A DNA stretch of 53,000 nucleotides. Origin: Pseudomonadota bacterium (GTDB lineage Archaea; Thermoplasmatota; SW-10-69-26; JACQPN01; JAJPHT01). The position numbers were made by a program, and so were the translations under genes. Positions 23,301 through 52,997 of the stretch are shown here, piece by piece. The notes below the pieces were generated by a model. The model was not told where the DNA came from, did not search any database, and saw only the letters and a program-made list of their open reading frames with translations. The stretch lies in the NCBI GenBank assembly GCA_021325135.1, contig JAJPHT010000008.1, positions 1-53,000 on the forward strand. The letters run 5' to 3'. The stretch's first letter is position 1, and every line of letters begins with the position of its first letter.

Positions 23301-26300
23301 TCGTAGCCGCCCACGGGGACGAGCTTGCACGAGAAGGCGCCCGTGGCGGGCTTCTCGGCGGAGGCCGTCTCGTCGAGGACGACCTGCGCGGAGACGCTGG
23401 CGCCGTCGTAGCGCGCGAGGCGGTCCTCGTGCCAGAAGGTGAGGAACGCGGGCTGCTGCGCCGTGAAGTTGTGCAGGTCGATGACGGGGCTCACGGCCTG
23501 GTAGTACGAGCCGCCGGGGCCCACGCCGTCGTTGTACGACGCGCCGAAGGCCAGCGTGCTCTCGTTGACGCCGATCTCCAGGGCGCCCGCGCCGTCGTGG
23601 CCGCGCGTCGTGGACCAGCCGAAGCCGTTGGGCGCGTTGCCCTGCGACCAGTTGGCCTTGGCGTCGTCCGGGTTGTCGAAGCCCGTGGCGTAGGCCTGGG
23701 GCGCCGCGGCGATGGCCATCTCCAGCGTGGTGGGGAAGACGTCGGGGGTGAGGTTGAAGCCGCCCACCGTGCCGTCGGCGACGCTGCCGCCCACGTGGAA
23801 GGCGAGGACGCCCGCCGCGTGCGGCGTCGCCTGGAACGAGACGACGGCGCTGCCGCCCACGGGGAGCGGCACCGAGGCGCTGCCGCACGAGGGGATCGTC
23901 TCGCGGTCGACGTCGGCCTCGCGGCCCGGCGAGGTCTGGTGGTTCGTGGGCACGTTGTGGTCGTACACCTCGGCCGAGCAGGAGAGCGCCGCGTTGAGCG
24001 GCACGCCCCCGGCGTTGGCCAGCCGGAGGGTGAGCGTGGCGTTCTCGCCCACGCGGGCGTTGACCGGCGTCGTGGTCGCGGAGACGACGGAGAGCGAGCC
24101 GTGGTCGAGGACCTCGAACTGCACGTGGCGCTCCAGGAAGCCCTGCACCTCGTTGTCGCGGATGGGCACGTAGGGCGTGTTCTGCGACGTGGGGTTGAAC
24201 TCGCGCAGCTCCAGGAGGAGAAGGTCCTGGAAGCCGTTGGGCAGCGTCTTGTCCGCCGTGAGCGTCACGTGGATCGTCGTCGACTGGCCCGGCGCCAGCG
24301 GGCTCGCCAGGAAGAGCATGGCGCCCGGGTGGCTGGCGTCAGGGTCGGCGAGGAGGCCCGCGGGCGCGTCGCCGGAGAGGACGACGGCGGGGTTGGCGCC
24401 GTTCACGGGCGCCATGCGCGCGTCGATGGCGAGGCCGCGGCGCACCGTGGAGCCCATGTTGCGGATGGTGACGGGGATGGTCACGTTGTGGCCCGGCGTC
24501 GTGGAGTGGAGCGCGGACTCGTCGGCGAAGATGCCGACGTTGCGGCCGTAGCGCTGGCCGAAGACGCTCACGTCGTCCACCTGCCAGTGGCCGTCGTCCA
24601 CGCTGCCGTCGGTGGCGGCGCGCAGGCGCAGCTGGATGGGCGAGCCGGAGAGCACGTCGCCCACGACGCTGACGTTGGTGATCCACCAGCCGCCGTTGTC
24701 GTCGGGGCGCAGGCTCCCCGTGGAGCCGTCGGGCTTCGTGAGCGTGGCCGCCTTCTGCTGGATGGCGGGCTGGCCGCTGAAGAAGACGTGGAACCCGAAG
24801 CGGACCTTCTTGCCGATGAGGTCGGAGACGTCGAAGGACGCCGGAACCCAGCCGTGGTGCGCCGCGCCGTAGGGCGTGTCGGTGGAGAACTGCGAGTAGA
24901 GGAACTGCACGTCCTGCCTCACGGGGGAGCCCTTCACGGGCGGGACCGCCTGGAAGGGCGGGTCGTAGCGCCGCGTCGCGCCGTTGTTGGTGGGCGTGGA
25001 GTTCACGGTGAAGTAGCTGTAGCCGCCGCGGGCGGGCGCCGCGGGGTTCGCGCCGTCGTACCCCTTCCCCATGTCGAGGCCCGTGTTGTACGAGCCGTCG
25101 GCGTTCCGGGGGTAGGGCGTCATGGCGTCGTTGGCGTAGATCTGGCGCCAGGGGCCCCAGGTGCCGGAGGCGTCGTCGTAGACCTGCGCCTCGACGACGC
25201 CGCCGGAGGCGAGGGGGTAGTCGGAGTCGGCGTACTTCTGCGCCTCGAAGGCGTAGCGGTGCTGGAAGGACAGCACGGCGTTCTCGCCCGCGATCTGCGA
25301 GAGGTCGAAGACGGGCGTCACCAGGCGCGACTCGGAGCCCGGCAGCGGGCAGGGCATGCTGGTGAGGCCCAGCGTCTTGGAGTACTCCTTGGCGGCGCCG
25401 TCGCCGTTGGTGGCGTCGGTGAGGTCGCGGCAGCGCGGGTCGCCGGGGTAGCCCGAGTACCAGGCGCGGGGCGTCTCGCCCAGCGCGTTCTGGAGGTTGC
25501 CAGGCGTCATGCCCTTGCCGTCCAGGTCCATGACGGGGACGACGCTCCAGTTGCTCTGGACGCCGGGCACGTAGGGGACCAGCGACCAGTTGCGGCCCAC
25601 GAGCGCGGCGTAGTTGGCCGAGGCGGGGTCGCCCTTCTCGAAGCGGGTGTACGTGTCGAACGTCATGTTGGGCGAGGAGCCGGGCACCGAGTAGCAGGGC
25701 AGGTAGGAGGTGCCGCCCGTGGCCCAGAGGTGCTCGCCGCCGGTGAAGTTGGCGCAGCCGACGACGGAGGCGGCGGCCCACGCGGTCTTGGGGTCGAGGA
25801 GCGTCACGCCGTTGGCGGGCTTGCCGTTCACGACCTGCGTGACGTTGACGCGGAAGCCGTCGATGGCGAAGCCGCGGTCGTCGAGCATGTTGCCGTAGCA
25901 CGAGATGCGCTTCGTGACGCTGGTGTTGCCGCAGCCCGAGAGCGCGTCGCCCACCTTGGGCGCGTAGGCGAAGCTGACGTTGACGTTGAGGCCCTTGAGG
26001 TTGCTCACGTCGGCCACCATGTGGTACCAGCGGCCGCGCGTCTCCACGATCGCGGGCTTGCTGACGTTGAAGCGGTACGTCTGGCCGGGGTGCTGGCCGT
26101 CGCCCACGACGCCCGCGAAGGCGTTGTAGAAGCCCGTGACGCCGGGCTGGGGCGAGTAGAGCGACGTGTTGTCGTAGTAGCGCAGCGTCTGGCCGAAGCG
26201 GTCGGCCCACTCCCACCAGTCCAGCGTGACCTTGGCGCGGGGGTCCGTGACGCCCGTGAGGTTCAGCGGCACGTTGAGCATCTCGTTGCCCGTGACGTTG

Positions 26301-52590: not shown

Positions 52591-52607
52591 GAGTGGGGGC
52601 ACTGGGA

Positions 52608-52639
52608 ATTTCACCCACCCGGTCGCGAAGCCGGGGAGC
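52608..52639 (-). other. 32-nt non-canonical tRNA intron in the T-loop (position 59/60) with strict BHB motif
   Basis: GGG-TTCA-AA|G-CTC-CCCGG...CCGGG-T-GGG-TGAA-AT|T-CCC: 4-bp TTCA/TGAA helix flanked by two 3-nt bulges; cutting after the 2nd bulge base restores TTCAAAT. Confidence 0.9.
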
Positions 52640-52660
52640 TTTGAACCCAGACAAGCAGGT

Positions 52661-52768
52661 CTCTTCTACGATTGCGCGTTCTGCGCTCCAGTCACACGTC
52701 AACGCTCCCCCTGCCTCGGCCGAGGCGGGGTCGCTCAGCAGACCTGGTGATCGTCATGTGGCTCGTAA
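52661..52768 (-). ncRNA. 108-nt tRNA-Trp intron (37/38) encoding a box C/D guide RNA for 2'-O-methylation of C34 and C39
   Basis: C box ATGACGA (52757-52751), D' CTGA (52738-52735), C'-like TTGACGT, D-like CAGA; guide CAGGTCT pairs with AGACCTG (N+5 = C39); guide ACTGGAGC pairs with GCTCCAGT (N+5 = C34), matching the known euryarchaeal pre-tRNA-Trp arrangement. Confidence 0.9.
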
Positions 52769-52886
52769 CTGGAGCCTGCCGTCATGCCTGGTTAGACCAT
52801 GCCCCCGGTGGGAGCCCGCCCGGGGAGCGGGTGTCGGGGCCGCGTCTGGGGCGGCCCCCGCGAAGCGCCGAAGCGCCGGTGCCTGC

Positions 52887-52997
52887 CTACAGGCCACGGC
52901 GCATCTTGGCGGCGCGCCTCCTTCGGCGCATCTTCTTCTTCCGCCACTTCCAGCGCTGGTTTCCCTTCTTCTTCCAGACTCGGGAACTCCTCTTCAT
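52887..52997 (-). CDS. rpl41e: Ribosomal protein eL41 (L41e)-like (not in ORF track)
   Basis: 36 aa MKRSSRVWKKKGNQRWKWRKKKMRRRRRAAKMRRGL; the RWKWRKKxMRR core and extreme basicity match archaeal eL41. Confidence 0.85.
   Translation of the reverse strand: MKRSSRVWKKKGNQRWKWRKKKMRRRRRAAKMRRGL

Follow-up and report, generated by a model that had tools for sequence, protein, structure and literature searches.

A tRNA-Trp gene with a second, T-loop intron shared across a class of Thermoplasmatota

The window analysed here, a 53,000-nt stretch of DNA from a soil Thermoplasmatota archaeon, holds a tRNA-Trp(CCA) gene (trnW) in three exons, whose unspliced form spans 52806-52594 on the minus strand (213 nt). 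With a probability of about 0.85, we read this locus as a single functional tRNA-Trp(CCA) gene with two protein-spliced bulge-helix-bulge (BHB) introns, the one in the T loop being old and having no recognisable cargo. On this reading, a whole class of Thermoplasmatota would depend on removing a T-loop intron for its only tRNA-Trp, with a splice motif as strict as an alpha'2 endonuclease needs, in contrast with reviews that describe only single introns at 37/38 in euryarchaeal-type lineages with alpha2 or alpha4 endonucleases (PMC4090602, PMC4033280).

Gene anatomy and tRNA census

The gene and its parts lie as follows.

52594-52806, minus strand: complete pre-tRNA-Trp(CCA) gene, with G1 at 52806 and A73 at 52594; CCA is not encoded
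52806-52769, minus strand: exon 1, 38 nt, positions 1-37 (acceptor 5' strand, D arm, anticodon stem 5' strand, anticodon CCA, loop to G37)
52768-52661, minus strand: intron 1, 108 nt, between positions 37 and 38
52660-52640, minus strand: exon 2, 21 nt, A38-A59 (anticodon stem 3' strand, 4-nt variable loop, T stem 5' strand, T loop U54-A59)
52639-52608, minus strand: intron 2, 32 nt, in the T loop between A59 and U60
52607-52594, minus strand: exon 3, 14 nt (U60, T stem 3' strand, acceptor 3' strand, discriminator A73)

Joining the exons yields 73 nt that ARAGORN calls as tRNA-Trp(CCA), so that a canonical cloverleaf is restored on intron removal. This call and the exon mapping reproduce exactly the gene structure, coordinates, intron positions and intron lengths given in a first-pass annotation of the window. 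The exon sequences are highly conserved, with exon 1 identical or near-identical among relatives, and the precursor folds with a z of -2.85. Unspliced, the gene was missed by ARAGORN and found no match in any Rfam model, permissive mode included, as had been anticipated in the warning that standard finders may miss it. Because both tools miss the gene, genomes of the class will seem to be without tRNA-Trp unless the finder handles non-canonical introns.

No second trnW was found in the assembly (51 contigs, 94% complete), where a BLAST of the mature sequence matches this locus only. Run without introns, ARAGORN returned 51 calls covering 42 anticodons, with Trp, Tyr(GTA) and Ala(TGC) the only ones missing, and the RF00005 model gave 39 tRNA hits, none of them at the trnW locus on contig C14. 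The question of another intact trnW, raised with the first annotation, is thus answered in the negative by ARAGORN, RF00005 and BLAST for this 94%-complete assembly. With unlimited intron length, ARAGORN made 127 calls, including three 'tRNA-Trp' genes with introns of 229-1430 nt; these were rejected as false positives because the intronless run gives 51 calls and the mature tRNA-Trp matches this locus only.

A census of intact tRNAs in this genome places a T-loop intron only in the tRNA that also bears the C/D guide intron described below. This census was used in place of a loose genome-wide scan for T-loop splice motifs, whose 60 hits were all noise apart from trnW. Besides trnW, the one intron-bearing tRNA that is convincing among the ARAGORN calls here is tRNA-Tyr(GTA), whose 50-nt intron lies close to the anticodon (G000:C24:104080-104205, G000 being this genome), and tRNA-Ala(TGC) was not found by ARAGORN, perhaps reflecting an rRNA operon that was left unassembled.

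Splice motifs, guide RNA and processing enzymes

The T-loop intron sits on a strict hBHBh' motif, in which two 3-nt bulges on opposite strands flank a 4-bp helix. The outer helix is the T stem itself (CTGGG/CCCAG, 5 bp), while the central helix joins U54-U55-C56-A57 (TTCA, 52645-52642) to TGAA (52613-52610) near the 3' end of the intron. The bulges are A58-A59-G and A-T-U60, and the inner helix, CTC/GGG (3 bp), is followed by a 1-nt bulge, a 5-bp stem and a hairpin. Cleavage after the second bulge nucleotide would place the two cuts at 59/60 and after intron nucleotide 32, before U60. The original description of a strict bulge-helix-bulge in the T loop, with TTCA/TGAA, 3-nt bulges and helices on both sides, therefore holds.

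The pairing in this motif is more than chance, because standard pairs fill 95.6% of the motif's pair cells in an alignment of 15 relatives, compared with no more than 58.8% in controls with slid partners. Across the class, the central helix retains all four pairs in 16 of 18 distinct sequences and three of four in the other two; within those 16, the only substitutions replace A with G opposite U54 or U55. Inner-helix pairs vary on both sides in the 15-sequence alignment. The central helix is weak and A/U-rich and does not appear in the minimum-free-energy fold, an absence to be expected of a short A/U-rich helix between bulges. Outside the splice motif, the sequence of the T-loop intron is not conserved across the class, and a BLAST of the genome returned no other copy of either trnW intron.

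The 37/38 intron is conserved in all relatives. Its motif has a central helix of CUCC (C32-U33-C34-C35, 52774-52771) with GAAG (52666-52663), bulges AGU and AGA, and an inner helix TACGA/TCGTA. The C·A mismatch that had been noted in this central helix is present, at C34, but it is no peculiarity of this trnW, as GAAG recurs in relatives both inside and outside the class; family f6 carries a perfect GGAG. The earlier designation of this intron as a C/D guide is likewise sound, its boxes and guides being read directly in the sequence:

52751-52757, minus strand: box C, ATGACGA (AUGACGA in the RNA), one base off consensus
52735-52750, minus strand: guide 1 (12 nt, 52750-52739) and box D' CTGA (52738-52735), read directly
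52680-52701, minus strand: box C' TGACGTG (52701-52695), guide 2 (11 nt, 52694-52684) and box D CAGA (52683-52680)

Guide 1 is complementary to AGACCTG, which spans the 3' splice junction, and places the fifth nucleotide upstream of box D' opposite C39; guide 2 pairs with GCTCCAGT of the anticodon loop, with the fifth nucleotide upstream of box D facing C34. The two guide-tRNA duplexes, read directly, are 7 bp and 8 bp long. Box D is one base off consensus (CTGA, CGGA or CCGA in relatives), and no Rfam C/D family reached its gathering score over intron 1, the best being sR3 (13.3 bits, E 0.67), which covers box C. Intron 1 is the same box C/D guide RNA that euryarchaeal pre-tRNA-Trp is known to carry, and its predicted targets of 2'-O-methylation are C34 and C39. 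The pre-tRNA-Trp of Haloferax volcanii bears such a guide intron (Clouet d'Orval 2001, Singh 2004, reviewed in PMC4090602), and the likeness extends to the 37/38 position, the tRNA-Trp host, the two guides and the predicted targets at 34 and 39 (PMC4090602). Position 39, however, is C here and U in Haloferax, and the published euryarchaeal C/D pre-tRNA-Trp genes are without the second intron found here.

The genome encodes a single EndA gene (G000:C15; L031:718-1779; 353 aa) composed of two tandem N+C units, with Pfam finding the N and C domains twice; we found no second endonuclease locus and no separate beta subunit gene in the genome. From end to end the protein can be aligned with 1r0v, the dimeric enzyme of Archaeoglobus, and the motifs FRAY, EH and VRKR (Y, H, K), which we take to be the seats of the catalytic Tyr-His-Lys triad, are retained in the C-terminal unit. 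Because of the two tandem units, the full-length alignment and the retained C-terminal motifs, EndA is assigned to the alpha'2 type, a predicted homodimer of two-unit chains. According to reviews, alpha2 and alpha4 endonucleases cleave the strict motif only (PMC4033280), and both trnW motifs fit this need of the enzyme, the C·A pair excepted. The gene for the RtcB ligase is split at two contig ends (G000:C4:1-861 and G000:C30:3-551, profile positions 1-284 and 250-426), which is an assembly break and not a broken gene, and fibrillarin is also encoded in the genome.

Taken together with these enzymes, the motifs lend themselves to a simple processing route. The transcript would present both introns on bulge-helix-bulge motifs, the genome's one alpha'2-type EndA would cut both, and RtcB would join the three exons, with the 108-nt intron and fibrillarin directing 2'-O-methylation of C34 and C39.

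Distribution and age of the T-loop intron

The class comprises 21 species genomes, one of them the MAG SW_10_69_26, and is probably the GTDB class that bears the name of this MAG. A T arm of trnW could be located in 19 of the 21. In 18 of these 19 the 59/60 site is interrupted, across two orders and five of six families, with the motif kept. The intron ranges from 30 to 117 nt in length, mostly 30-34 nt, with longer cases of 46, 75 and 117 nt. Introns of the two orders are similar even with the constrained last six bases removed (z 2.9-4.2). Because the intron is shared by two orders and five of six families, and is similar across orders, comparison argues for one origin at least as old as the class ancestor; the proposal in the first-pass annotation of a recent intron gain in this lineage is wrong on these same counts. 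The exception, family f5 (G012), has an uninterrupted T arm and retains the C/D intron, a state most simply explained as loss of the T-loop intron.

Two species of one genus carry the 117-nt and 75-nt introns (L021 in G013, 1445-1578, and L017 in G014, 1420-1511, respectively), which are enlarged by extra G/C-rich hairpins with the splice motif unchanged. In JGI soil metagenomes, six contigs have a genus-type exon 2, all with a 32-34-nt intron and an intact central helix, and these copies show further compensatory stem changes. The same scan, of DNA data, returned no contig with an intronless (spliced-type) exon 2-exon 3 junction of the genus type.

A sample of 401 Thermoplasmatota genomes yielded 71 outside the class in which a T arm and acceptor of the Trp type could be matched, and in 70 of these the T arm is uninterrupted. 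The remaining genome (G075, family f33, titled 'Halobacteriales' at NCBI) has a 43-nt intron at the 59/60 site, and the other matched members of its class show no interruption. A wider scan covered all species genomes with a pattern for this particular Trp T arm, so that differing trnW genes, such as those of the large families f8 and f28, fall outside its scope. It brought up two more f33-like MAGs interrupted at the 59/60 site, a three-species order of another class with all three interrupted (that class being otherwise uninterrupted where matched), two small low-GC MAGs labelled Methanosarcinales, one Woesearchaeota contig and one Aenigmatarchaeota contig; a hit in a Nanoarchaeota cell (L055) reads as tRNA-Phe. 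Compared with those of the three-species order (the G402 group), the introns of our class show no similarity (z at most 0.6), and with those of family f33 the similarity is modest (one pair reaching a z of about 3). The intron in these three Thermoplasmatota lineages may go back to a single ancient intron that was lost many times, to independent gains at a favoured site or to transfers.

Several of these hits carry puzzling database names. Loci L044, L049 and L056 (CAYVGY01, CAZXJU01 and CAYOZB01) come from entries titled 'uncultured Halobacteriales', whose phylum is Thermoplasmatota by kinship labels (G075), and L046 and L048 come from entries titled 'uncultured Methanosarcinales' of 1.1-1.3 Mb and low GC; the NCBI labels of these MAGs look unreliable. 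The trnW of L046 has two introns, and that of L048 has extra sequence in the D-arm region that resembles a third.

Most likely, the T-loop intron was gained once in the class ancestor. Because this is the only trnW, any mutation that breaks the splice motif would be lethal, and the motif would be kept for that reason. Precise loss is rare and has been seen once (family f5). The simplest reading is that the T-loop intron is a neutral insertion locked in place within an essential gene that exists in one copy, given that there is no conserved sequence beyond the motif and no other copy, that length changes are tolerated and that the intron appears to have been lost once without loss of the C/D intron. 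For the debate on gain and loss of archaeal tRNA introns, the case supplies a non-canonical intron that is old, has been inherited stably, has one documented loss and sits at a site also occupied in other lineages.

Competing readings, precedents and surroundings

An alternative is that the T-loop intron is selected for a job of its own, either by delaying the L shape until C34 and C39 are methylated, with T-loop modification following splicing, or by giving rise to a stable circular RNA. Class-wide retention at a stable length, mostly 30-34 nt, would suit such a role, as would its restriction in this genome to the tRNA with the C/D guide intron and the fact that trnW is interrupted at the same site in two further Thermoplasmatota lineages and in some genomes of DPANN archaea. 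We nevertheless consider this unlikely: the sequence beyond the splice motif is not conserved across the class, the length grows to 46, 75 or 117 nt, family f5 lost the T-loop intron and kept the C/D intron, and in some 70 further Thermoplasmatota genomes the gene that hosts the C/D intron has no intron in its T loop. The link to tRNA-Trp is moreover partly an ascertainment effect, as the scan pattern was specific to the Trp T arm and the L055 hit proved to be a tRNA-Phe.

A related proposal treats position 59/60 of tRNA-Trp as a site used repeatedly (by one Thermoplasmatota class, a three-species order of a second class, one family of a third class and DPANN) under a strict-motif alpha'2 enzyme, which is shown to be the only endonuclease for this genome among the hosts of 59/60 introns. 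Retention would then stem from a tie to the C/D guide intron, for example by delaying the folding of the precursor until C34 and C39 have been methylated, as opposed to mere inability to lose the intron. We regard this combination as improbable, and favour the neutral insertion frozen in a single-copy gene.

Quite doubtful is the idea that the T-loop intron is a recent gain, possibly one that blocks integrating elements. The intron does split the T arm, and in an unrelated member of the Thermoplasmata (G466:C47:2342-2475) an uninterrupted trnW has its 14-nt 3' end (TCCCAGTG.CC.CA) repeated 110 nt downstream, which may be an attachment-site remnant of an element integrated into trnW. The distribution over two orders and five of six families, with similarity across orders, refutes the 'recent' part, however, and in this genome neither intron has another copy, no integrase or element is tied to trnW, and exon 3 is still contiguous with the downstream flank.

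Least probable of all is that the insert stays unspliced, either because the gene is a pseudogene or because the RNA works with a replacement T arm folded from the intron 3' end and exon 3 (TGGG-TGAAATT-CCCA), the 5' half of the true T stem then serving as a long variable arm: the substitute hairpin can be drawn, and in some relatives has a perfect 5-bp stem and 7-nt loop (CTGGG-TGAAAAT-CCCAG), but this is the only trnW in the assembly, its exons are highly conserved, the substitute loop is without the conserved T54-Psi55-C56, and substitutions in TGAA are confined to those that still pair with TTCA (A to G opposite U), which fits a helix and not a loop.

Introns at 59/60 and two-intron tRNAs have already been published, and the class-wide tRNA-Trp case is a new example of both. 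In ARMAN-2 (Micrarchaeota), pre-tRNA-Cys(GCA) and pre-tRNA-Pro(GGG) have introns at 59/60 (Fujishima et al. 2011, PMC3239211). The T-loop position is the same as in our gene, and the ARMAN-2 tRNA-Pro is also a two-intron gene with a strict hBHBh' motif (PMC3239211). By contrast, the ARMAN-2 cases concern other tRNAs in another phylum, whereas the intron described here is fixed across a class; the ARMAN enzyme is a three-unit epsilon2 of broad specificity and the ARMAN tRNA-Cys motif is relaxed, whereas here an alpha'2-type enzyme meets a strict motif. Table S7 of tRNAscan-SE 2.0 lists 25 non-canonical introns and 7 two-intron genes in 144 Euryarchaeota, with 6 and 1, respectively, in Methanomassiliicoccales and 1 and 0 in Thermoplasmatales, as counts that come without tRNA identities or positions (PMC8450103). 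Tabulated genes of this kind share with trnW protein-spliced BHB introns outside 37/38 and more than one intron per gene, and so provide precedent in cultured Thermoplasmatota orders. Multi-intron tRNA genes with non-canonical introns are also on record for Thermoproteales, Thaumarchaeota and a few Euryarchaeota (PMC8450103). Our literature search turned up no description of a tRNA-Trp intron at 59/60, of T-loop introns in Thermoplasmatota or of such an intron being fixed in a Thermoplasmatota class.

Two minor features of the genome deserve mention. A repeated G/C hairpin unit (GGGGG..GGGCGAAGCCCCC, then TGACGT or GAAGC) turned up three times in the motif scan, at scan offsets near 24140 on G000:C15, at 1208 on the minus strand of C29 (along the reverse complement) and near 101595 on C33, and looks like a small dispersed repeat. 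In the window itself, an extremely basic ORF of 36 aa lies about 80 nt upstream of trnW (52887-52997, minus strand), starting with MKRSSRVWKKKG and ending in KMRRGL. It has no Pfam or NCBIfam match and resembles the archaeal ribosomal protein eL41. A similar basic ORF ends just upstream of trnW in relatives from the class and from another Thermoplasmatota class, a gene order that suggests conserved synteny and perhaps co-transcription with trnW.
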